Shown here in pieces: positions 1 through 56,714 of a stretch of DNA of 64,000 nt. The notes under the pieces were generated by a model. The model made no database searches, was not told the origin of the DNA, and saw only the letters and a list, made by a program, of their open reading frames with translations. The position numbers and the translations under genes are program-made. This stretch comes from Catajapyx aquilonaris. Lineage: Eukaryota. Every line of letters starts with the position of its first letter. The first letter of the stretch is position 1. The stretch lies in the NCBI GenBank assembly GCA_000934665.2, contig KZ538057.1, forward strand, positions 62,001 to 126,000, read 5' to 3'.

Positions 1-180
1 ATGAAATCCCTTATGGGGCAAGGGTTTTACTGTAATAATGTTTGTCATCCCTGAAATAGTTAGTGAGGTAGCCCTCTGAACCACAGCCCCTCAATTTTGT
101 TTTACTGTGCAGTACTCCAACACTTTACCCAGCTCACCTAATGCAAAAATGTCCACTTATTAGTAATATCTCACTTGACA

Positions 181-512
181 GGGAGACGGGCGCCCACGGA
201 AGTTAAGGTCCCGGGTTCAATCCCCACCCGGGGTTCCCACCTTCTTTTGTGCAGAGTTGGGCCATCTCTGGCTTCGTTTCGGGTGGCAATTTCCGATAGA
301 CTAAGCCACCCGGGGGAGTTCACAAAATGACGATTAGAGACATTGCACTTGCACTTTGCACATCCCCTCCCACCCACCCTTGGAGTACACTAATTAAGAT
401 CTTCTTAAAACTCGCTCCAAAAAATCAAATTCCAATGGTGGTAACCCACCCCCCCTAAGGAGTAGCATAACTCCCCCCGTGGGGTAATGAAAAAAAAAAA
501 ATGAAAAAAAAA
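181..512 (+). mobile_element. tRNA-derived SINE insertion with poly(A) tail and 13-bp target-site duplication
   Basis: B-box-like GGTTCAATCCC near 214-224, A-rich tail at 489-512, and flanking direct repeat ATCTCACTTGACA at 168-180 and 513-525. A close homologue lies at 3655-3975 (-). Confidence 0.85.
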
Positions 513-597
513 ATCTCACTTGACATTCTCATTTGAGTGCATCTCGAAAGTTAACTCCGTGCAATGCAATCGTACATCCAGTGTTCATTATGCATGG

Positions 598-726
598 CAT
601 TGTGTGTCCGCATTTTTACCTCATAATGCAAGGTAGGCGTTCGAGGCTTTTACTGTACACATTTCTATTGCATGTTTGAAACCAACAAAACCAAATAAAA
701 ATATTAATGGTTATGCAGACATGCCT
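598..726 (-). ncRNA. Box H/ACA snoRNA candidate in TCTP intron 3
   Basis: Hairpin 1 is GCATGT...AACCA...TGGTT...ACATGC, followed by H box ATAGAA. The 16-mer AACATGCAATAGAAAT is identical to the intron 1 candidate. Hairpin 2 is GTGT...TACCTT...GAGGTA...ACAC, followed by ACA plus 3 nt. Confidence 0.62.
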
Positions 727-793
727 CTGATAGTGACACTTTTCACCTACGCAGCTTTCCAACTGCAACTAATCCTAGACATCCCATACTAAC

Positions 794-1958
794 CGGTGAA
801 GAACTGCAGGTCCTTAAACCTGCCCAGAAGATCCTTCATGACCTTGTTCATGTTCGACTTGAACTTCTCCACCTCTTCAGGCTTGTCTTCCTGCAGCTTG
901 TTAACCAGCTTCTTCATGTACTCCTTCAGGTAGGCCGTGTAACCTTTCTTGTCACCAAAGGCAAAGGTCTCCTGGAGTCTGTGGTTGAGGACGATGTCAA
1001 CCCCACTCTCAACAGCCTCATTATTGCCCTCATCAGCTTCTTCTGCAGATGGGTTAGCCCCATCAATCACCACTTCGCCTTGCCTGCGGGTCTCCAGCTG
1101 AAATGTCAGGATCGGATAAGCCAAGCAGTCCACAAAAATGTGTTAGAATGCCTTTTCATCCCGACGCCAAACGGTAAATGGCCTCAGGTTTGAATGCAGA
1201 CAGGTTTATTCTGGCATGTATAGCGTCTGACAAAACAAGTAATAGCTTCTGCCAGTTGTTATGACATGCGAACATGTTCTACAAATTTAAGCAAACTCAC
1301 CTTCCCCTGGACTTCGTACAGGACGTCATCCACAAGCTTCATCTTGTAGGTGTCCGAGAACATCTCGTCACCTGCAAACGCAACCAACATGTTCAATTCC
1401 AATTCCACCTAATTATCCACTAATTTCATGCAATTACGCAGCTGGTAAGACTGTGCGTTTGCCTTTTCCTCCCAAAGCTCCATGAGTGGATGCTCAGGCC
1501 TGAGCACAAACATATTTCTATTGCATGTTGGCATATAGTGGGTCACAGATAATCACCACTAGAGTTTGAACATGCTGTACATGGCCTGGTTAAGCCCCCC
1601 CCCCCNCGGAAGCACATTCATTCCACATAGTGCAATGGATGACTCATACTCGCATGACTCACTAAGGATTTCCCTTCTCAGCTGTACATTACTGAATTTT
1701 TTTTCTAAATTAAAAAAACCCCAATACGTTGCTCCCAACTATTCAGACACGTTCCCTTCATTTGAACCCGTTCAGACTTGATCTGAACCGTGCACAACCC
1801 ATCACTTTTCTTCAATCATGGCCACAAACTCATCCCCAAATTTCAACTCAATATTTCGTCCCCTCCGACCCGTTTTCACCCCGTACAATGTGGTATCGCC
1901 TGAAAGCCCGTATCGAGTAGTCGCACTCACCGGTGAATATGTCCTTGTAGATCCTCAT
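794..1958 (-). CDS. TPT1: Translationally controlled tumour protein (TCTP), partial; final exon not found in the window
   Basis: Exons 1958-1931, 1371-1301 and 1097-794 have GT-AG borders and join in frame: MRIYKDIFTGDEMFSDTYKMKLVDDVLYEVQGKLETRRQGEVVIDGANPSAEEADEG...VESGVDIVLNHRLQETFAFGDKK...LQFFTG. These are hallmark TCTP motifs. Confidence 0.97.
1138..1270 (-). ncRNA. Box H/ACA snoRNA candidate in TCTP intron 2
   Basis: Hairpin 1 is GCATGT-[CATAACAA]-CTGGCAGAA...TTTTGTCAG-[ACGCTAT]-ACATGC, with H box AGAATA 14 nt from the pocket. Hairpin 2 has upper stem CCTGAgGCCA...TGGCgTCGGG, with ACA 16 nt downstream. Confidence 0.7.
1449..1577 (-). ncRNA. Box H/ACA snoRNA candidate in TCTP intron 1
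   Basis: Hairpin 1 is GCATGTT-[CAAACTC]-TAGTGG...CCACTA-[TATGCC]-AACATGC, with H box ATAGAA 14 nt from the pocket top. Hairpin 2 is TGTTTGT...GCAAACG, followed by ACA plus 3 nt. Length is about 129 nt. Confidence 0.72.
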
Positions 1959-2027
1959 GTTTGTCCGATGTTGTTGGATTGATCTGAGGTGGTCGTCGGG
2001 GAAGGTACGGACCTGCAGCCGATCGCC

Positions 2028-2050
2028 GGCGGAAAAGAGAGAGCGAGAAG
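2028..2050 (-). promoter_or_regulatory. TCT core promoter / 5' TOP start of TCTP
   Basis: The minus strand reads TCTTCGCTCTCTCTTTTCCGCC about 80 nt upstream of the ATG and matches YC+1TTTYY (C+1 near 2037). TCTP is a known TOP mRNA. Confidence 0.65.
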
Positions 2051-3438
2051 AGGGAGCTGCTGGGCTGGAGGGGGGGGGAGGGGGCCAGGAGCAGCCAATC
2101 ACACGGCTGCGAAACGTGGCAGCGCCAGCCAAGGGACAAACACGGAACTACACACGTTCAACCGAAATTTTAATCCAAAAACTTTAATGTCGTTACTATA
2201 AAAATATTGCGGATTAAATTATTAAATTAGGGCAGGTTGCCGCACTAGATTGTTCCACCAATAGTATTGCAGAACGAGCCGGATGTGACCAATCGGATGC
2301 GAGTGGTGAACTGGGGCGTGTAAACGGCGTTAAAATATCATCAGGGCGCAGCACCATATTAGCTACATTGTGTTCATAATAATAGCTAGCATGACCTACT
2401 TGTAATTTAAAGACAATTATGTGCACAATAAAATTCGGGCAATGTCATATCAGGGTGCTCGTTGCTGTTCTAATACGCCAGCACGGATCTAGCGTGCGAT
2501 ATGCAGCCATGTGTTTTCCCAGCCAAAATAAATGAAATCAATAACTGTTACAATTATGCAGCTATATCGGAGGTCAATGGCACTAGCAATCGGCGTTTTA
2601 AAAATATCCCTCCTAAAACCAGGCGTGATCATATTTAAAACCGTGCACAACTGTATGGTGCAGTAATTAAAACTAATCCGTCGATTGCACCTGGCACTGT
2701 CAATCCGCGGTTGCAGAGGCCATTTTCGTGGCGTAGTGTTTGTGTTGCGGAGAAGTCCTTGAGGCGGTATATTTTTTGTGGGTCCCTCCTGCTCCTCCCC
2801 GGCATAATCAATTTTTTGTTGTTGTTATCTGTGTTTGGGGCTGTTTTGCGGGAAGTGTGAAGGAAGAGGAAGAAAAAGGACAGGCCGGATCGTCGGTAGG
2901 TTGGACAGCAAGTATTGGGGCGTGGGCTGTGCATATGTGGTGTGGGGTGTGGCCTGTCGTCGGTCATGTGTGACGGCCGGTGGGCTGCAGACACACAGAG
3001 GATTTGTGGATGTATGTTGGGGCGTTATGTAAAAATGAGTGGTCTAGAAATATGCAGGTAGTTCTTATCAGTTGGGCACGTTTGCACATATCACACCTGT
3101 GACATCATGACCTTGGAGTACACGCGCATTGATAGAAAAAAAAAGTGTTGTGCAATCTGAAATATCGGGAAATATATGTTCAATGGTTGGCTGTACCGTT
3201 GCGCAGGTTAGTGAAAAACTTACAGAATATTTAGGCTCACATATGTTACGCCCAAATGTAGCTTCTCCAAATGGCAGTGTAATATGACATGAATTTTATG
3301 CAGAAGGATTGAATACTATATTGAATCTTCAGAAGGATCAGAGTCACAGGAATAGATACCTGAGCGACAAACTCATACAAAAGTAAAGCTGATGCGCTAT
3401 TTTCTGGCAAAATTTTTAAAGTATTGCAGCACTTTGTA

Positions 3439-3653
3439 CAGTGCCGTGCACAATAGCATATAACAAGCGTAAACAACGACTTTGGCGTTACCTGGCAACT
3501 GGGTGTGTTCGGACATGGGCATGTGGAGAGTGCTTAGCGTTCTTTCTGTCGTTGCCACTGTTTACAGGTAGCGATTGATGCTGGGCGACCTATAGCGAAG
3601 GGTGTGTGCATGCTTACCAATGCATGGAATCGGAATAAGCGGGCTGAGGGGGA

Positions 3654-3717
<64 letters not shown>

Positions 3718-4352
3718 CCATTGGGATTTACCATATCCTTTAGGGGGGGGGATTACCACCATCGGAAATTGGAGCCATATAAGATCTTATTTAATTACTC
3801 CAGGGTAGGTAGGAGGGGATGTGCAAAGTGCAAGTGCTATGTCTCTAATGGTCATTTTGTGAACTCCCCCGGGTGGCTTAGTCTATCGGAAATTGCCACC
3901 TGAAATGGAGCCAGAGATGGCCCAACTCTGCACGGATAAAGGTGGGAACCCCGGGTGGGGATCGAACCCGGGACCCAGTCACGATCAACATCAACATAGG
4001 ACCTTAGTAACCACCACACATAGCAACCAACTACTAGAACATCCCTCTCATCTTTCCGGCCATTCCGTAACTCCATCATCGTGGGAATAAGACAGTGACG
4101 ATAGTGTGATAATAACGAAGCGCCTTCTCAAAATAATATCCCCTCAGCCCGCTCATTCCGATGCCATGCATTGGTAAGCATGCACACACCCTTCTCTATA
4201 GGTCGCCCAGCATCAATCGCTACCTGTAAACAGTGGCAACGACAGAAAGAACGCTAAGCACTCTCCACATGCCGATGTCCGAACACGCCCAGTTGCCAGG
4301 TAACGCCAAAGTCGTTGTTTACACTTGTTATATGCTATTGTGCACGGCACTG
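3439..4352. mobile_element. Non-autonomous Tc1/mariner-type DNA element with ~220-bp terminal inverted repeats and a nested SINE
   Basis: 3439-~3660 is the near-perfect reverse complement of ~4132-4352. The ends are TA|CAGTGCCGTGCAC...GTGCACGGCACTG|TA (TA TSD). Confidence 0.85.
3655..3975 (-). mobile_element. Second SINE copy with (TAA)n tail
   Basis: The reverse complement matches 181-512 over about 260 nt (GGTTCGATCCCCACCCGGGGTTCCCACC...GACTAAGCCACCCGGGGGAGTTCACAAAATGAC). The (ATT)n run at 3655-3716 is its tail. Confidence 0.85.
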
Positions 4353-6254
4353 TACCACTCCTACCACCTTATCACAAAATAATTTAAAAATTGTTACACT
4401 TTGCCATTTACTGTAGTAAGAGCCGGAGTATGTAACAAGTACGGTAAATTGCATCTAATTAAAATATTAATGATGAGCATTATTCAGTCAATGCCAATTT
4501 TGACAGAGATTGAGTTAGTGCAATATGGAAATAATTGGCATCATTAGCAGAGGTTATAGTCCCACTCCGTGTGGCCTGTTTATAACAGGACTGACATGGC
4601 GGGCACTTTTGGATGTTGTGTCCATTTTGCATGCAGCATGGTTTATAATGTGTCACTGTTGGAATTGGGATAAAGTTATGATTTGTAGTACATGTCCTGT
4701 AGTTACATTGAAGGTGCTTTCATTGTGGAGGATAAAAATTGTGGCTGTGTCTGTTCAACTTTGGGTGCTTGTGTCAGTGTATGAAGCGTCAGAAACCTGT
4801 ACAATGGATAACTAGATTTGAATCTCACATGTGATATAACGATCACTAACATCAGCTAGAATCATAGAACGGCTGAACTAGTAAGATGTCATCTTGCCTG
4901 TATTACTAAGAACTGTACAATTTAGTCATTGTGCCAAACCTTTTGACATCATTGGTTCAGTACTCTGAAAATACAACTGGCGTTATCATCCCAAGAGATG
5001 TGGTTGGGTGGACGTTCCTGCAGAGAAATAATTTTGCTGATGTTATCAGTTACTATAATTGAGAAAGTATATTTAAATTTAAGCTTAACTTGAAGGGTGG
5101 GTATGGGTATGTATGAGAGACCTTGAAGTTGAAAAATATTATTGCTCCTTTTTATACATGAGGTTTGACATAATTTTTCCTACACTTCTACCAGAATTGA
5201 TGTGCAGAAAGCTCTCACTCCCATTGCTGTAGTTACAATTTTGCTGAAAGATAATAATTGAGCATTGCAGGATTTTGTGGCCCACCCAAGAAATTGGTAT
5301 ATAAATCATGAGTGTAATTTGGGAGGGATGGGAGGGAAATATGTATGCACATTGAATGTATTAAAACTTGCTTATCTGAGATTCCATGTCCACTTTAGTT
5401 GTGAAAGAACCACACAATCCAAGTAATTTTAAATTTAAAGTTAAATAATAATTGTGAATATAGTTTTTGCTTGTAGGATAGTAATGGATATGCGAATGAC
5501 ACTTTTTTTGGTAAGCCATAACACTGTGACAAAAGCAGGACTTGGAATCATATTCATTTTTCTGCCTTTGTTTTGAGTGATTAATTCTCAAGCAGTGTAT
5601 CACATATTTTAAAATACCTGCCATTAAAATCTTAAGAGATTTTGTTATTTTTGTTGTACAATTTTTTGGTTTTTATTTGTCAAAAAACTTGAATCACATT
5701 ACATTCCTTATGCTGTTGAAGGCCTTTTTGTCTGACCTTAGATGACATTGTCGCAACTGCTGGTCACATGATACAAATAAGCCATTGAAAGACAGCAATG
5801 CATGTCAGTAACAACCGAGATTGGCTGATTTGGATTGTGTCACGAGCAGGAGTGCCATTGTTGCTCTCTGATGGGAAGGCCTCCAGCTGCAGTCCGTGTG
5901 AGTATTGAGTCTTTCATTTCTAGTGCTGGTTTTGGTGTTAGGTGTTTGTGACATTACGATTTCCAATAGGTCATGTGCTCTGCAAACGACATTACTTGAT
6001 TGTCTGGTTATTGAGTGGACACGTTTATTAAATATTAATAAAGGGATCAATAGTATGTGTTTGTAGTTGTCCTGTGGAACTGTGTTGGATGTACTTGGTT
6101 TATAACTTGCCTCGTAAAACGTAAAACATTTGCGGCCGTTTGGTGCTACTACTTATGGGAAATGCTGCCTTGATTTTTTTTTTTTTTTTACATTTCACCT
6201 TCTTCTGCAGGAGTGTGACTTATACCGAATGCTGATGTGCATGGTGCATGCCTC

Positions 6255-6891
6255 ATGCCTTATGTAATAGTAACTGGGAATCTTGTGCCATATCCTGGGA
6301 ATAAGCCATGGCTTGTGTCAGTTGCAGGTCTCAAAGGTAAGAAGTGACACTTTACACCCATTAACTCAGTACTTTTATTAGCACTGACTTAAATTTGGTT
6401 GAAGGCCATTTTAATCACCTTTGTTAACATGGAAACTGAGTTTAATTCAGAAGTTTTGTTGAAAGGAACTCCTTAATTTACAATGTAATATTTGCCACCA
6501 ATTGTCGGTTCATCACATTCATCAAGCTTTCATTTAAATTTTGGGTTTGTTCCTTTCATTCTCAACAAAATTAATAAAACTCGTGTACGGAGAGGTGTTG
6601 GCAGTGTCTATTTTTCAAGAGTATAATTCTAGATATCTCTGAATCCCTGCCCTTTTTCCCATAGCCAAAGAGGTTGATCAGCTTCAACGCTTCAAGGGGG
6701 TGTTAAACACCCACACCCTGTCAGTGGAATTTCCTCACCACCCGTGTGTTGTGCTGAGTGCCCTAGAAGTCGTGGGTTTCAGGGTGGAGGCAGCTTGCCC
6801 AGGGGGAGCAAATTTTGCCAAAGAAGTCTCCCAGTGTGTTTGGACATTAAGAAAGGAGTTCAGTGAACCTGAACCGCTTGACGACAATTAG
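6255..6891 (+). CDS. GFRP-fold-like small protein A (102 aa)
   Basis: Exons 6255-6336 and 6665-6891, phase-1 GT-AG intron: MPYVIVTGNLVPYPGNKPWLVSVAGLKAKEVDQLQRFKGVLNTHTLSVEFPHHPCVVLSALEVVGFRVEAACPGGANFAKEVSQCVWTLRKEFSEPEPLDDN. The pattern MPY-hydrophobic...PxxVLxxLExxGFRV...VWxL recalls GTP cyclohydrolase I feedback regulatory protein. Acceptor at 6210. Confidence 0.8.
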
Positions 6892-7593
6892 GAAGAATTT
6901 TATCAGGTAGGTATTCTGAGCCAGGGTATTTTTAAAACATGGGATGTAAAAAGAAGGCAAAAAATATGTGGCATGTGCTGGTTTTTATGTTGACCTCAAA
7001 CTTTAACGTGCTGTCACATATGACTACTCCAGGGTTTTAAAAAGTAAATTACCACCACATCATTAATATGTCACTTGAACTTTTCAAGACCAGCACAGTT
7101 TACTTTAATGCATGCATTTTGTGATGTATTTTATTCAGTGTTTGGTTGCATTTTGAGTTGTGTGCTTTACAATCATTCAAACTCTTGATGAGCAATTTTT
7201 TTCCTCCTGTTTTAAATTTGTCTCAATTGTGCCAGCTGTACTTTTTACATTTACACATTGATGTTTCTTCCAACTATTGGTACCGTACCTACAATAATTT
7301 GCAGCTAGTGAACAAAAATAACAGATTTTTGCTTGACATTTGAGGAGATTCCAAGAAATCAAATCATTACACCATGCAACTAATGAAACTGAAGGCTTCT
7401 TGAGAACCATTTTATGTTTGTGCTCACAGCACACTTGTCTTTTTCCTTTTTTGTCGCTAGCGTCTGCCTGCCTGTTTGGTTGCCGCAGCCCCTCCCATCC
7501 TTTGTCTCTTATCTCACCCTCACGACATCCACACTTTCCACCACAACCTGCCACCACCCCTGATTGTGCACGTATGAGCTGCTGCGAGCAACA

Positions 7594-7943
7594 ATGCCCA
7601 CGTATGCTGTTGTGAAGGGCTCCCTGTACTCAAACGAGTGTTCGATATTTGGATTGACTACGGGTGAGGTGCAGGTGCTGGGGCAACGCTTTCCAGGGAG
7701 TGCAGAAACAGAGGTCCTCAACGGAATGTGCGTCAAAGGTATAGGCGTGAGAATGCAGTGGGAGTGAGCATGTGTGTTGTGCATGGGTGTGAGCATGAGC
7801 ATGGAGGTGGGATATAAACCTTGCTGTGCATTATTGCAGCCTCACCGGTGTCGGTACTCAACGCCCTGGCAGGAATGGGTTACAAGGTGGTGGCTGCCAC
7901 TGGCGAAGGAGAAGTCGTTTGGACCCTCCAGAGGGACAAGTAA
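7594..7943 (+). CDS. GFRP-fold-like small protein B (82 aa)
   Basis: Exons 7594-7738 and 7840-7943: MPTYAVVKGSLYSNECSIFGLTTGEVQVLGQRFPGSAETEVLNGMCVKASPVSVLNALAGMGYKVVAATGEGEVVWTLQRDK. The C-terminal half closely resembles the GFRP pattern PRIVLDKLE..GFRVLSMTGVGQTLVWCLHKE. Confidence 0.82.
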
Positions 7944-8579
7944 ATAAATCAGGTAGGACTGCTATCCATCCACGTAGGATGTAGAGCACGTTGCATATTG
8001 TGGTATAATGCCGTGTGCAGGCGATTTGGATTTTGATGCAGTGTGGGCTACTCCAGGTTGCTGTGTTGTTAATGTGAAGGATGTCTCAAAGGCAGGGAAG
8101 ACACGCCCCAGAAATAGCTTGTTTTAAGCACTGATTAGCTCAAGGAAAGAATTTTGGACATGCTCCAAGTGAAGTGAGGTCTACCCTTTGGTTGCCATTT
8201 TAGTTTCATATTAGCCCCTGAGACACCTGACAGGTAGACAGCACTTGTTAAATGGGCTGTATAAATTGTACATACTGTATTAGAAAGCACTTAGAGTGTG
8301 GTAGGTGTGCAAATATTAGGATTCTATTTTTGAATGTTAGGTGAGGCCTAGATCCATTTGGCTGTCTGTTGCCTTGCCAAAAATTTGCTCTTGAAACCTG
8401 CCTTACGTTTCCCCAACATATACTATGTAGCTTCTAAAGCCAGGTTGTGTCCATGGCCATTGCATCTGATGCGCTTCTCCAACAGTTGTGTCCACTCCTC
8501 CCCACCTGCTCGTCCGTCCAGGTGTTGTGTAACCAGTGTCCATTGAAGTTTTGGGCCTTTACGTGTGAAAAAATACGCA

Positions 8580-8873
8580 ATGCCTTACGTGGTGGTGCGT
8601 GAGTCCCACTACCTGACAGTGGAGGGACTTCCCTCACCACTGGAGGGTCAGCTGGTGGAGAAGCTTGGGTGGAGGCCCCGGGAGCAGACTAGCCACTCAG
8701 TAGTGTTCCAGAGGTACCCATTGGTCCTGCTGCTGAACCAACTGGAGAGCATGGGATACCTGGTCATTGCCTCCGCCTGTGCTGCAGACAGTTACGGGAA
8801 CATTACAGAGGTGATCTGGACCCTCCATCGTAAGGAGGAGCCCACACCACCTTCGCAGCAGGGATTTCAGTAA
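8580..8873 (+). CDS. GFRP-fold-like small protein C (97 aa unspliced; C-terminus may be completed by splicing to 9735)
   Basis: MPYVVVRESHYLTVEGLPSPLEGQLVEKLG...YPLVLLLNQLESMGYLVIASA...VIWTLHRK. Pyrimidine-rich acceptor at 8521, and the exonic leader contains no ATG. Confidence 0.8.
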   Translation: MPYVVVRESHYLTVEGLPSPLEGQLVEKLGWRPREQTSHSVVFQRYPLVLLLNQLESMGYLVIASACAADSYGNITEVIWTLHRKEEPTPPSQQGFQ

Positions 8874-9806
8874 GGGAGTTGTGTGTGGGAACACACTCTG
8901 GCTGTCTACGCTGCAAATCAAAAATAATAATAATATTGTGTACAGAGATAAATTGCCTGGCTGTGTACTCTGCTGCCTGATGACCCTCCCCCTCTTACTC
9001 TCTCAACATGCAGAGTTTTTAAAAAATGTCCGGAATGATGGTGTGTTCAAGGGGGTGTGGTCTTTGTGCGCTCGCTCGTTCGTCCCTCCCCTGGCCAACC
9101 GGTTAGACCTGAGTTCATATCGTGTGTAGTTGTGTGTGTTGTGTGCAACGCTGCTTCTTTGTCATTTGTTCCATGCTCGGGAACTAACTTCTACTCTTAT
9201 CCCGTACATTCCTTGATGTTGTCCTTTCTCATTGTGTCTTATCCACTCTGTTCATTGTGGTGTCTCTCACATGCTGCACATACTTGTTATCTAATTGAAG
9301 ATGTTTTGGGCATATACTGTGACAATTATTTAAAAATAATCTCATTGCATTGTGCAAACTTTAATACAATCAAATTGTTTTTGCCGTTTCAGAGAAAGGG
9401 ATAAGCTTCAATAATGAGAAGGTGGTTTCTCTAGAAACCATTACTTATGCCCTAGCTCTTCAATTATTACTTTCCTACCTGTTAAATTCAGTTGAAGGGG
9501 GTTGTGTTATATACTGTACTCACTAACTTCTGAGCAGTGCCACTATTTTCCTTCCATTCTTTCCAAACCTCTACATAGAGTATGTAAAAGGAGGGCTTTT
9601 TTATTAATTTAATTGCAATGAGGCTTCCTGCTTCATGCACAGAATTGCAAGTGCACTGTACTGTACTCTTTCATTGTCCAAAGTATCATTTCTCTTTCAT
9701 GACGTCCTTAAATATACCTTCATTTCATTTCCAGGTATTCTTCTTGACTGTGCCGCAAGTGCTCAGTACAAAGCGAGCTCGCTCCAGTGTTAAAGTGAAT
9801 TGGTTG

Positions 9807-10506
9807 ATGGGAGGACATGAGAACTGTGGCTGCCATGGGAAAGGGTTTAGTGTTCCTTCTGTCCACCAGACACTGGATGAGCTGGATTTTGAGCGAGGAA
9901 TTTGGTCTGCTGGTGAGGCAATTTTAAAGTTGTGATTGGCCACTGCATTGGACTACTGCTTTTGAGGCTTACAGTTCTCATTTTTGCCATGCAGGAGTTT
10001 GACAAAGTGCAATGTAAAAGTAACTGATCATGTATTTTAGATCCATTTCAATATGTGATTATTATTATTAAACCTAACAATATTTTGAAATCCACCTGAT
10101 CCCTGCAGCCCTTGAAGGAGACGTGACTCGAATCACTTCCATGCTGTCAAAGGGAGTGGATCCAAATTCCCTTGATGCATCAGGCTACACAGCACTCCAC
10201 TACGCCTCTAGGCATGGTCGACTGGATGTATGCACTGCCCTACTGTCTGCTGGAGCCTGCCCTAATGCAACCACTCCTCATGGCAAAGCCACTCCCCTAC
10301 ATAGAGCCGCTCATGCAGGGCACTTGGAAGTAGTTCGAGTTCTCATGGACCTAGGTGCAGACCCTGGTGTGCAGGATGCAGATGGAGAAACTCCATTGCA
10401 TAAAGCTGCTTACCAAGGGCATGTGGAGGTGGCCAAAATGGTACTGGAGAGAAGACCTGGATTGGACAAGGTGGAGGATGTCAAAGGGCGGCGACCTGTG
10501 TTCTAA
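9807..10506 (+). CDS. ANKRD39: Ankyrin repeat domain-containing protein 39 (167 aa)
   Basis: Exons 9807-9912 and 10109-10506. The family-diagnostic SVHQTLDELDFERGIWSAALEGD is followed by ankyrin repeats GYTALHYASRHG, ATPLHRAAHAGH and ETPLHKAAYQGH. Confidence 0.93.
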
Positions 10507-21151: not shown

Positions 21152-24100
21152 ATGCAGGCGGAGGACAGGGGGCGGCAAAGGAGGAGGAGCTGCTACTGCT
21201 GCTGCCACCGCCAGAAGAAGAAGAAAGCACAGGGGCAGACACTGACACGCAGCAGATGGATGACATGGGCCCTCCTTGCCCTCGCTCTCCAGCTGGGGTG
21301 GATGGGAGCCGCCGCACAAGCACAGGAAGAACGCCCTGTGTTGCTGCCCGGAGTGCTCCTTCCCCTGCCCGAGTGGGGGCCCGACGGCTTTACCGACTCC
21401 CCTGCCATTTGCCCCCGGGGACTGGGACCGAAGAAGCCAAGCCCATGCACCGACGACGACGACGACGACAGTGTAAGTGTCAGTGCAAGTGTGAGTGGTG
21501 GCGAGGACCAGGAATGCAGTTTGTCCAACTTGCCCCCTCCTTCCTTCCCCTCCTCCTCCTCTCCCCGCTCCACTGCCAATGCCACGAGTCCGCAGTGCCT
21601 TCCTGTCGATGTCCCAGCTGCTGTGGTGTGCAACACCAGCCTGACGGAGAAGAAAAGAGAGGAGATGCTGAGGGCGAAGATGAACCACTGCTCCTTGCAC
21701 AGTGTGTGGGATACGCTCAACCAAACTCAGCAAAGGCAGGCTGCCAGGGACCCCACTTACTGCGGTGTGGTTGTCAACGCTCTTCGGGAGCTGGATGCCC
21801 AGGCCCACCAGTTTGCATGCAGCTTCGATGCTCTCCTTGAGCGGTTTGACTGTGCACAGGAATACTCCGTCTGCTTTGGGTGTGACCACTGCCAGGTCTG
21901 TGCACACCGTCATTGTTGGCTCATGCAACATTTATTGCTTGATTAAATGAGGTGTCCCCTTGATGTCCAATGTTGTTCATCTCATGTGGCAGATGCTTGG
22001 GCTTGAAATGATCATTCAGAATCTGGCATTATATTTGGAGCCATAATGGATGTACTGTACTATCTGTTAAACTAGTTAAAGTGACTGCCAGATTTATTCT
22101 GGCATTACGCAACCATCAGCACCTTTGTGGGTTTTTTTTAACCTCTAGATTTTAGCTTGGGCTGATGGTTGCAATGCCAAGGTATGGCTGGGAGACATTT
22201 TGGGCAGATAGTGCTGTACATTGGCATCGTAAAAGGCATATATCCTTGAATTTTGTCAAGTAACTTTGATCAGAACTTGGACCAAGAAGACCATATTCAA
22301 GGCAAGCTTCAATCATCCCGCATCAACCATTAGCTTGCTCTGGTTTAAAACAGGCTTTAACATTTAACCTATTACTAATCAAACATTAAGCATGCCCCCT
22401 GGTTTGGCTCTTTCTTTCAGTACAGGTTGTTGAACCAGAATGATCGCTAAAAATAGCTGTATTATGTAATGTAATGGCTTCTGGAATCCCATTGCCACAT
22501 GTCTCATGAACAGCTGTTGGACACCAAGAGACTATACACTAGAGGGTCTATGCTTATGTTATACTTTTCCAAGAACTCGTCTTGACTGGTGTGTTACTAT
22601 AATGAAGCACACCAGTCAGCAAGCCAGGTGGTTGTGGGAAAGCATGGGAAAAGTGAATTTTTATTAAGGGAGAAAAATATAAAGGTCAGTGCTGCCTATA
22701 TGATGATATACAGTACTGTACAGTATTCATTACGTATGAAGGTGAGGTACACTAATGTCTGGAATTTAATCATCATCAAGGAGGGTCATGATATATTATG
22801 GTGGCTGACAACATGCAATCATTTCTAAATGATGATGCAGTGTTGATTCATCTCTGCATGTGCAGTAAGATGTGTAGGAAGTAAAGTGGTTAGGGACAGG
22901 TTATTTTGAGCGACTTGAACAGTAGTAACTCTCCATTATCTGCGGTACAAACGTTTGAGAAGGTGCAGAGATATCTATTGTTGGTGACCTCAAGGATAGA
23001 ATGCCGGTCTGGGGAGGCGACCCATAAAATCCTGTGCAGGATAAGGGACCAGCCTCCCCACTGCTTTATCATATAAAATGTTAAAATTCGAAGCATCCAT
23101 AGGGGGCCCACCCTCTGTTTGAAACGACGGATTTATAGGCACAAATTACGTTGATTTCCTGCAATAACAGGCGATTAGAGTGAATATTGGCGGTTTATGA
23201 CGTATAGCCTCCCCCTAATACTCCCCCCCCCCTTCCCCCTTTTCCCCTGCATGACACCGGACAAGGCTTTTGTTATTGTAGCATGCAAATTTTCCAACCG
23301 GCCCTGGGTCCAGGCGCTTAGGGGGCGGGAGGGAGGGGGCGATTGCTTTAAAATTTGCACATCTACCCATTACCGCCTTCCCATCTTCTGATCATCTACA
23401 TATTAATGCGATTACATCAGGGGCAGACGTGTGACATGATGTCATGTGAGAACTGGACTCTGGTAATCGCTGGGCTTACGACCCCCCCCTTTTTTTTGCG
23501 AAAAAAAATTTGGGAAGTTTTTGGAACCGCAGGAGTCATGTTTCATTAAATCGGTGCTGTAGCCTAGCCAATTGGTCTCGTCAGAATGCCTGGAGCAACC
23601 AGACCATCTGTTCTAGCTGCTTTGGAAGCTCGGGGGCGTGTTGGTGATAACAATGGCAAAACCTGGGAACTTAATGGACTGCAAAGTAGGGGGAGGATGA
23701 GCACGGCCAGTTGAAGGGAAGAGTATTATATCCTAGTCTCCAGTTCAAAGATGGGAGGGTAGGGGAAGCTGTTTACTCCAGCATTCCGCTGGAATCAACT
23801 GGAGGTCCTTGATTATATCTGGGTAACATTTTCAATTCCTCCCCAGCTTGAACTGGGGACATAGCCCTCTCTATAGCCATATTTATGCACATATCACGTC
23901 TGGTACTCTACTTTTGAAAAAGCCATCGGTCGAATTTTGGTCCAACTGCTAGTTATTGCTAACTTATCAGTGATATAAGTTAGCAGTAACTAGCAGTGGG
24001 ACGAAAATATCACCCACGATTTTCGCCATGTATGTTGCAAGTATTCTATAGGATGGTCCAACAAGGAAGGAACATTGCTTCAAAATTAAGGCACATTTAG

Positions 24101-55590: not shown

Positions 55591-56714
55591 TCACACATTC
55601 TTCACTTCCTCCAGATCCTTGAGCAGAGCAAAATTCATTCCGTCGCCTGGGAGAGGCGAATCCACAAATGGCATGAACCAGACGGCCAGCCACCGCTTTC
55701 CAAGCACTTCTTTGAAATTTCTCTTTGGACCCAAATCAAATTGCCTCACATTGTGCTTACGCTCATACAACGTCTGTCCCCTGAAAGGAGAATTTATTGA
55801 AATTGGCATACCCTTGATTGTAGGAATATCCATACCTGTAGATTGAAGATAGCTGCAAGCCCAACAGATAAGTAGTCATTACGAGAGAGACCATGCCCAT
55901 GTCGTGAAGGACGAGCGTCATAAATTGGAACAGTGAAACTTGGCGAAAAACAAGTGCAAAGTGTGGTGCGAGCAAGCACAGCAGGAATCCAACTAAGGAC
56001 TTTTCAGATGTCCCCATGGCAAAATCCCAATGATAGATGACCCCATAAGCTGCCCCGACCCATATGTAGAAGAGGCCAACAAGGTAGAAGCGGTGGTTGC
56101 GATGTCCAATGCAGAGACCTGGAATGCAAGGTATGAGCACATTAAATTACCTGTAAAAATTAGGAGACAATACGGGACATACCAAAGAAGCGGCAGTGAT
56201 GGTCTCTCTTTAGGACGCACTCGTTGCATATTTTGCAGTGGTATGAACGAGGCGGAAGATTCAGTTCACATCGAGAGCAGTAGTGCCAGCCTATAATAAA
56301 TTGACTGTAAACGTACTGATCAACCGTATACTTAGGTCCTTTGGATTGCAGGAAAGAGAAACAGGAATGAAATGGTTAACTTCAATATTGAGTGGTTTGC
56401 ATGAACTCCCGTTAAATTTGACTAAGCAGATATTCACCAATATTGATGGTATGAGGCAGCTTAACGACCTTCCCGCTGGGGTCTGTTCGCAAGGCCCTCA
56501 GGACATTGCCAGCTATGCTTCCAGCCACAAATACGGCTACGAAGATGTGCCAGGCAGCTTCAAGGCAGAAGTGGTTGTGGTAATAGGGCAGCACAACCCC
56601 GCACAGCCATCCTACGCCAAAGGGAATGCCAAGAACCATCACCGCAAACATGGACCGATCTTTCCCATCCTGTGGGACCACAGACCGGGGCCTGGGTACT
56701 TGCTGGGGCAGCAT
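55591..56714 (-). CDS. ZDHHC24: DHHC palmitoyltransferase, ZDHHC24-like (285 aa)
   Basis: Exons 56714-56438, 56290-56183, 56118-55836 and 55780-55591. Motifs: GWHYCSRCELNLPPRSYHCKICNECVLKRDHHCRFFGLCIGHRNHRFY and C-terminal RGQTLYE...FDLG...NFKEVLGKRW...SPLPGDG. DHHC family membership is certain; the subfamily is assigned by motif and size. Confidence 0.88.

Follow-up and report, generated by a model that had tools for sequence, protein, structure and literature searches.

A 64,000-nt stretch of the Catajapyx aquilonaris genome (contig KZ538057.1 of assembly GCA_000934665.2, positions 62,001 to 126,000 of the forward strand; hereafter 'the window', whose own numbering is used throughout) carries three small open reading frames (ORFs), here called A, B and C, followed on the same strand by the ankyrin-repeat gene ANKRD39. 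Spliced, RNA-like contigs join these ORFs to one another. We consider it probable, at roughly 0.65, that they form a conserved arthropod polycistronic locus in which one promoter would serve the cis-spliced, GFRP-fold cistrons A, B and C together with ANKRD39, the downstream frames being reached by leaky scanning or re-initiation. The locus is a four-cistron counterpart of a fly locus, CG33995/CG44000/CG44001, that is already flagged as polycistronic, and is not a new kind of thing. New here are the GFRP-fold identity of the small proteins, their arthropod-wide linkage or fusion to ANKRD39, the arrangement of the cistrons as cassettes in which a stop is followed at once by a splice donor, and a contrast in ATG content with two downstream paralogues, D and E.

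In the arrangement that we propose, one promoter, divergent from the TCTP gene, would yield one pre-mRNA, and cis-splicing would string together cassettes, each made of a leader, an ORF, a stop and a donor, in the order A, B, C and then ANKRD39. Chaining of this kind would give mature RNAs with two to four separate frames and spacers of 59–148 nt. Alternative splicing would decide which frame comes first: skipping exon 6211–6336 would turn the second exon of A into an ATG-free leader and make B the first long ORF, and skipping C would set ANKRD39 81 nt behind the B stop. Downstream frames would be reached via leaky scanning, re-initiation or both, presumably helped by the scarcity of upstream ATGs, and the small proteins would act with ANKRD39, likely through binding.

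The junction data are contigs of one public short-read run, of unrecorded kind, which shared 0.42 of sampled words with the window. Raw contig joints were shifted by the tool's 'cut' offsets to give exact exon borders (for example 2894>6664 with a cut of +1, 6334>6663 with +2 and 7949>8483 with +3; further raw joints are 6904>7459, 7736>7838, 7949>9732 and 9911>10108). Eight GT..AG joints (Table 1) chain a 5′ non-coding exon (E1), A, B, C and ANKRD39. Eleven of the 12 listed joints end in GT..AG or CT..AC, in keeping with the strand of the respective gene, opposite-strand TCTP included. One 634-nt contig covers 6664–6904, 7459–7736 and 7838–7952, that is, A exon 2 through both B exons, and alternative splicing drops either the A start exon (2895>6665) or the whole of C (7952>9735). 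This fits a polycistronic mRNA in the FlyBase sense, a mature mRNA bearing at least two distinct coding regions, in that spliced RNA-like contigs join the end of one ORF to the start region of the next. The chaining of spliced ORFs, and its origin in cis-splicing as a preliminary description of this DNA had proposed from the letters alone, is confirmed; the outcomes which that description had named against itself were not found, as linking joints exist and the ORFs are more than alternative terminal exons.

That these joints reflect chimeric contigs or processed DNA copies instead of RNA from the locus is scarcely credible. The kind of run is unrecorded and the data are contigs, not reads; however, the listed contig pieces show 0 differences to the window, the joints are canonical on the right strand as just described, the alternative joints use the same donor, and independent gene models and transcripts of other species link the same gene types. 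Intron 1 provides a further argument. It contains an inverted repeat (3436–3651 and 4140–4355; 216 nt, 97% complementary), and 14 of the 16 single-letter differences between contigs and window at 3455–4321 are A>G and fall within the repeat arms. These clusters fit ADAR-type editing of a double-stranded, plus-strand pre-mRNA spanning intron 1. A long (ATT)n microsatellite (3657–3715) lies between the arms.

The cassettes are compact. ORF A (ATG 6255..6336 joined to 6665..6891, plus strand) encodes 102 amino acids (aa), and its stop (6889–6891) is followed after 15 nt by the donor TATCAG/GTAGGT (6906/6907). ORF B (ATG 7594..7738 joined to 7840..7943, plus strand; 82 aa) ends at 7941–7943, 9 nt before the donor AATCAG/GTAGGA (7952/7953), and shares with A a phase-1 intron at the same K/A position. 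ORF C (8580..8873, plus strand; 97 aa) has no intron within it, and its last sense codon straddles the donor CA/GTAAGG (8869/8870). Splicing of 8869 to 9735 ends C as ...GFQYSS, with the stop at 9745–9747. ANKRD39 then runs from ATG 9807..9912 to 10109..10506 (plus strand), and a pyrimidine-rich acceptor lies ahead of each next ORF. An AATAAA (7943–7948) overlaps the B stop, 5 nt before the donor, so that the B stop, AATAAA and 5′ splice site lie within 14 nt (7940–7953); this packing suggests competition between polyadenylation, giving an RNA that ends with B, and onward splicing. In-frame fusions were also considered and rejected: the ORF B stop precedes its donor, which precludes a B–ANKRD39 protein in the window, and for C the donor is in phase 2, whereas reading through exon 9735 into the ANKRD39 start requires phase 0.

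The stop-then-donor sites and the AATAAA are exactly as the preliminary description gave them, and its ATG-free exonic spacers before C and ANKRD39 agree with the sequence. Its splice sites needed some correction. The acceptors at 7460 and 9734 are used, as are the inter-ORF junctions 6906>7461 and 8869>9735; the proposed acceptor at 8521 is unused, 8485/8486, 36 nt upstream, being taken instead (7952>8486, with 7952>8522 unseen), and the alternative at 7488/7489 was not seen. The predicted spliced end of C proved right; it lies 59 nt ahead of the ANKRD39 start codon, whose position is 9807 and not 9809. A start region divergent from TCTP had also been placed upstream, and a 5′ exon with its donor at 2895/2896 indeed feeds the unit; TCTP itself (Pfam TCTP, E 6e-32) is the upstream neighbour on the minus strand, with a minus-strand intron joint at 1097>1301.

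The splicing pattern bears directly on a classical operon, in which spliced-leader trans-splicing at the acceptors before B, C and ANKRD39 would give capped monocistronic mRNAs. A strong acceptor does lie ahead of each ORF, and an unseen RNA source entering exon 9735 is possible. However, every acceptor is joined in cis to a donor just after a stop, and none of the six loose ends listed (of 33) is at 7461, 8486 or 9735, so that we regard such an operon as highly improbable. Some crustacean groups use spliced leaders; insects, in which the locus also occurs, are not known to do so.

Comparison with protein families suggests that the small ORFs are distant relatives of GFRP. Against Pfam PF06399 (GFRP; gathering score 25 bits), a 33-aa piece from B exon 2 scores above the threshold (31.3 bits, E 1.8e-7), and C (21.3 bits, E 2.3e-4) and A exon 2 (20.3 bits, E 4.7e-4) below it; D and E give no PF06399 match. 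A profile built from the window's own ORFs found GFRP chains as all four of its PDB matches (E about 0.005) and, among 1.84 billion representative proteins, 115 relatives at E ≤ 1e-3. A word-based protein search with ORF C gave no match; the relatives emerged from the exhaustive profile search. By best BLASTP match, 42 of the relatives are A-type, 47 B-type (a group that takes in canonical GFRP-like proteins), 13 C-type, 10 D-type and two E-type, with one matching none; best identities are 43–49% for A, 54% for B, 43% for C and 40% for D. Arthropods account for every named member of the clusters looked up (ants, Daphnia, Timema, firefly, stink bugs, bed bug, blow fly and an ostracod), a count confined to named members, many further relatives carrying no name. 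In a quick tree of 114 domain rows, from which rows matching fewer than 55 profile positions were left out, D (Shimodaira–Hasegawa-like approximate likelihood-ratio support 96), A (85–89) and C plus E (81) form clades and B lies on an unresolved backbone; the tree has few columns and many open forks. The window paralogues are only 29–43% identical to one another, and each has an intact frame and relatives in other species, which argues for selection on each protein. By these sequence comparisons, A, B and C are genuine conserved protein-coding genes.

The predicted structure of C supports the same assignment. Its AlphaFold2 model (mean predicted local distance difference test 93.0, predicted template-modelling score 0.80) retrieves in Foldseek, at ranks 1–3, the human and rat GFRP chains 7alc, 1jg5 and 7acc (E 6e-4 to 8e-4, template-modelling scores 0.54–0.65), with the related KCTD12 H1 domain close behind. 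By this model, C has the GFRP fold. The ESM Atlas, as a lead only, places an unnamed arthropod cluster nearest (0.93) and gives a GFRP cluster 0.85. These proteins resemble GFRP in their length (∼80–100 aa), in the MPY at the N terminus, in the W-T-L-h-K/R motif at the C terminus and in their predicted fold. They differ in that their sequence matches fall mostly under the Pfam cut-off and that they form several arthropod-specific paralogue clades. The KCTD12 H1 domain matches the C model almost as well. The role of GFRP as a GTP cyclohydrolase I-binding pentamer in phenylalanine/tetrahydrobiopterin control is putative for the window proteins. GFRP is treated as absent from flies in the parts of the tetrahydrobiopterin literature available to us, and a literature search found no paper that calls these small proteins GFRP-like or describes an arthropod-wide linkage with ANKRD39.

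The last cistron is clearly ANKRD39 by sequence. The ankyrin part matches 345 proteins at E ≤ 1e-5 among 395 candidates. Of the 120 listed, the great majority of those with names are ANKRD39, at about 49–59% identity; the best named matches come from fishes, birds, a lancelet, a cricket and a spider, and the best match overall (62%) is unnamed. Pfam Ank family matches lie in exon 2. We know of no report on ANKRD39 function, and a literature search combining it with polycistronic, bicistronic, upstream-ORF, small-ORF or GCHFR themes found no relevant paper.

GFRP-like units and ANKRD39 are linked well beyond Catajapyx. A Pfam scan of all 16 relatives longer than 170 aa found ankyrin repeats behind the GFRP-like unit in six: those of Cacopsylla, Lygus, Cimex and Darwinula and two unnamed proteins. 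Read by eye, the Cacopsylla protein consists of a B-type unit, a 5-residue link and ANKRD39. In those of Lygus and Cimex a long linker separates the B-type unit from ANKRD39 (several RefSeq isoforms show this in Cimex), and that of the ostracod Darwinula has two D-type units and ANKRD39. Gene models of Timema and Aquatica string A-, B- and D-type units together. Some of these entries are gene predictions, perhaps spliced over stops; they nevertheless show the same genes side by side on one strand. The hemipteran entries that derive from transcriptomes have uninterrupted frames. The link between GFRP-like proteins and ANKRD39 is, on these comparisons, old. Because a B-type unit and ANKRD39 share a single polypeptide chain in several other arthropods, joint action of the small proteins with ANKRD39 is probable, with binding as its likeliest form; the in-frame fusions thus lend some support to the preliminary suggestion that the products work together.

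A fly locus has the same gene types. The FlyBase 'Rule-benders' paper (PMC4528330) places CG33995, CG44000 and CG44001 at one locus flagged 'polycistronic, all di/polycistronic', with stop-to-start spacers of 223 and 144 nt, and describes CG33995 and CG44000 as 'barely similar, possible tandem duplication' and CG44001 as unrelated. Earlier, Hayden and Bosco (2008; PMC2276209) had listed CG31919/CG33995 at 25C1 as a conserved peptide upstream ORF (uORF) ahead of an ankyrin-repeat main ORF, with Ka/Ks ratios (non-synonymous to synonymous substitution) of 0.10 and 0.31, respectively, and the pair on one expressed sequence tag as far as Glossina. By eye, the uORF in the supplement to PMC2276209 is the A-type C-terminal tail (WTMRKEF.EPEP). 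The main ORF opens with a B-type domain, the same stretch as the Drosophila mojavensis profile match P0015, and continues into the ANKRD39 N-terminal motif and ankyrin repeats. The order A-type, B-type and ANKRD39-like on one strand is thus common to the window and the fly locus as these sources give it. No D. melanogaster name appears among the B-type clusters looked up, and the link to CG44000 rests on PMC4528330 and the PMC2276209 supplements. The same FlyBase paper bears on the preliminary view that such transcripts are rare in animals, which is overstated for insects: polycistronic transcripts are not rare there, because among fly genes release r6.04 records 159 dicistronic pairs together with 7 tricistronic and 2 tetracistronic sets (PMC4528330), and the fly counterpart of the window locus is itself flagged polycistronic. 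The earlier interpretation is partly supported, and its core holds.

An alternative is that the upstream ORFs of the window would be mainly regulatory uORFs that restrain or condition the translation of ANKRD39, or the decay of its mRNA, the peptides being secondary. It draws on Hayden and Bosco, for whom the A-type tail of the fly was a conserved peptide uORF (PMC2276209), on the position of the ORFs in the ANKRD39 5′ leader, on the short spacers and on the cluster of upstream ATGs (uATGs) before A. We nonetheless judge it very unlikely. The small proteins are conserved over their full length in distinct, old paralogue clades, many of whose members are annotated as stand-alone proteins; the C model has a confident GFRP-like fold; in Hemiptera the unit is fused in frame to ANKRD39; and CG44000 has an entry in a fly tissue proteome table (PMC11709110).

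A more serious alternative, though still an unlikely one, is that, chained RNAs notwithstanding, the locus works monocistronically, each protein coming mainly from an isoform with its own ORF first, through alternative splicing, alternative 5′ exons or internal polyadenylation. Examples would be B after skipping of the A start exon, a B-only RNA ending at the AATAAA at 7943, and a 5′ exon joined to 9735. The two cistron-changing splices (2895>6665 and 7952>9735) and the AATAAA just before the B donor are what such working would use, and many polycistronic fly loci also yield monocistronic isoforms, some via splices that disrupt one coding region (PMC4528330). Contig depth, 98 over ANKRD39 against 13.4 and 11.5 in the junction contigs into exon 9735, leans weakly the same way; depth cannot rank parts of a gene, and this unexplained imbalance was not used as evidence (into A exon 2 the corresponding depths are 7.9 and 13.2 against 24.6). 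On the other side, neither E1>8486 nor E1>9735 is among the 12 listed joints, and C has no isoform in which it comes first. No canonical poly(A) signal follows the C exon, and the listed C contig is spliced on to ANKRD39. The label 'all di/polycistronic' means that no monocistronic isoform is known for the fly counterpart (PMC4528330). Monocistronic working would also leave the depletion of upstream ATGs unexplained.

This depletion bears indirectly on translation of the downstream frames from a shared mRNA, as does the proteome entry for fly CG44000. Between stop and start lie 148 nt for A–B, 103 nt for B–C, 81 nt for B–ANKRD39 and 59 nt for C–ANKRD39. The last three contain no ATG, and the A–B spacer has one, which opens a 13-codon ORF overlapping the B start. 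In the isoform that skips A exon 1, E1, A exon 2 and the first 113 nt of the B leader are free of ATG, and the 1285 nt upstream of the ANKRD39 start contain 7 ATGs against 16.2 expected from dinucleotide-preserving shuffles, a count as low occurring in 1 of 1000 shuffles; A exon 2 has 0 against 2.5 in shuffles. A exon 2, B and C range from 0 to 1.4 ATGs per 100 nt (A exon 2 0, C exon 0.52). In contrast, the ANKRD39 coding sequence has 3.57, D 3.07 and E 2.58; D and E, for which no contig shows chaining to a downstream ORF, lack the ATG scarcity of the upstream cistrons. The scarcity of ATGs in the upstream cistrons is consistent with selection for leaky scanning, and the short spacers would also allow re-initiation.

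Several points weigh against a shared, polycistronic mRNA as we propose it. The presence of all four ORFs on one molecule is putative, as a short-read contig across two genes proves no single transcript; E1>6211 is absent among the 12 listed joints; and ANKRD39 RNAs may have other 5′ ends, depth being unbalanced at exon 9735. The ATG test covers small regions and several comparisons. The B start is in good context (A at −3) and B has three further ATGs, which disfavours efficient leaky scanning past B. The A start lies behind four uATGs in poor context, so that A may be poorly translated. Re-initiation after ORFs of 82–102 codons is usually inefficient. Translation of each ORF from a shared mRNA in Catajapyx is putative. 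Orthology to the fly genes rests in part on a by-eye reading of a supplement (PMC2276209).

A bolder version of the polycistronic reading may be considered. The four or five ancient arthropod GFRP-fold paralogues (A, B, C/E and D) might form a mixed five-membered ring that docks on ANKRD39, one mRNA then serving co-translational, stoichiometric assembly and splicing setting the subunit mix. This conjecture takes its basis from the GFRP homopentamer, and its pancrustacean sampling comprises an ostracod, water fleas and several insect orders. We think it quite unlikely.

Table 1. Splice joints, exons and downstream paralogues of the A–B–C–ANKRD39 locus (window coordinates; / marks a splice site)
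Feature	Position	Strand	Evidence and remarks
Joint E1 to A exon 2	2895>6665	+	Contig; skips A start exon
Joint A exon 1 to A exon 2	6336>6665	+	Contig
Joint A end to B leader	6906>7461	+	Contig
Joint B exon 1 to B exon 2	7738>7840	+	Contig
Joint B to C	7952>8486	+	Contig; acceptor CAACAG/
Joint B to ANKRD39	7952>9735	+	Contig; skips C
Joint C to ANKRD39	8869>9735	+	Contig
Joint ANKRD39 exon 1 to exon 2	9912>10109	+	Contig
E1, 5′ non-coding exon	2700..2895	+	Donor TCGTCG/GTAGGT at 2895/2896; 0 ATG; 2700 is not a mapped 5′ end
Exon with ORF A start (ATG 6255)	6211..6336	+	Four uATGs at 6229–6248; ATG-rich; skipped in some RNAs
ORF A exon 2 and 15 nt to donor	6665..6906	+	Contig; Pfam GFRP; ATG-free in every frame
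ORF B leader (133 nt) and B exon 1	7461..7738	+	Joints on both sides; ATG 7594, context AACAATGC
ORF B exon 2	7840..7952	+	Contig; Pfam GFRP 31.3 bits; poly(A) signal scan
ORF C exon	8486..8869	+	94-nt leader without ATG; joints; contig 8483–8869; frame closes in next exon
ANKRD39 exon 1	9735..9912	+	Carries spliced ORF C end (QYSS-stop), 59-nt ATG-free spacer and ATG 9807
ANKRD39 exon 2 and 3′ untranslated region	10109..10860	+	Ankyrin repeats; stop 10504–10506; contig 10108–10557; AATAAA 10855 is a candidate end, unmapped
Paralogue D	12151..12740; ORF 12178–12438	+	Own-profile E 3e-33; contig 12268–12737; acceptor 12150/12151; AATAAA 12726
Paralogue E	15256..17079; ORF 16547–16933	+	Own-profile E 7e-33; 5′ exon ends at 15333, spliced to 16537 (raw joint 15332>16536)

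Downstream of ANKRD39, no contig links D to the upstream unit, the 5′ part of D (12007–12267) being uncovered by contigs, as are 11340–12006 and 13341–14674. D also has a donor-like CA/GTGAGT at 12519/12520. E looks like a separate gene. Two E-like C-terminal fragments (13596–13700 and 14465–14611), each with a stop, match the own-ORF profile with E about 1e-3. Neither showed an N-terminal exon, and both fall within the uncovered interval 13341–14674; they may be pseudo-exons or the last exons of unrecognised copies.

Other features of the window stand apart from the locus. A repeated element is present in two oppositely oriented copies (142–389 and 3852–4127) with near-identical translated stretches, and contig depth over 3336–4002 is high, as for an expressed multi-copy repeat. 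An ARAGORN tRNA scan and Rfam at gathering thresholds returned nothing over 1–20000, repeat copies included. The stretch 20100–22000 is very GC-rich and of low complexity, and both its strands carry long open frames, of which one of 352 aa (20888–21946, plus strand) has no Pfam match. Two exon-sized minus-strand frames, one matching DHHC palmitoyltransferase under the cut-off (55763–56146, E 9e-6) and one matching Putative esterase PF00756 (61417–61839, E 5e-18), are neighbouring genes unrelated to the polycistronic locus.

The locus would offer a clean and evolutionarily old animal case of one spliced mRNA bearing as many as four distinct coding frames, with relatives across arthropods. It has a built-in control, in that D and E are not ATG-poor and the upstream cistrons are, and this contrast makes ribosome access to downstream cistrons directly testable. 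It also ties ANKRD39 to a divergent GFRP-fold family, both uncharacterised, and from the in-frame fusions of bugs and psyllids one would expect the two to be physical partners, an expectation open to test with the Drosophila genes CG33995, CG44000 and CG44001.

Among known systems the closest is the fly CG33995/CG44000/CG44001 locus (formerly CG33995/CG31919), where matching gene types follow one another in the same order on shared transcripts. Its spacers are 223 and 144 nt, against 148 and 81–103 nt in the window. The window differs in an extra C-type cistron between B and ANKRD39 and in the downstream paralogues D and E; each of its own spacers contains an intron lying 0–15 nt after the stop. 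The 2008 fly model reads the B-type and ankyrin parts as a single ORF, an arrangement that no path of splicing permits in the window. In the parts of PMC2276209 and PMC4528330 available, neither paper likens the small proteins to GFRP or names the last gene as ANKRD39. Drosophila Sloth1 and Sloth2, as described in the excerpts available, are likewise paralogous small proteins that come from one transcript and act together; they differ in having two cistrons, in belonging to another protein family and in lacking a larger partner gene on the transcript. Green algal polycistronic loci, on similarly partial accounts, also carry separate ORFs on one capped mRNA, with the downstream ORF reached there by leaky scanning. 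The algae belong to a different kingdom, and the ATG-poor upstream cistrons of the window would suit the same mechanism. Nematode and tunicate operons likewise place several genes under one promoter and are resolved by spliced-leader trans-splicing. In the window, by contrast, no leader is seen in the contigs, and cis-splicing keeps the cistrons together in the mature RNA.

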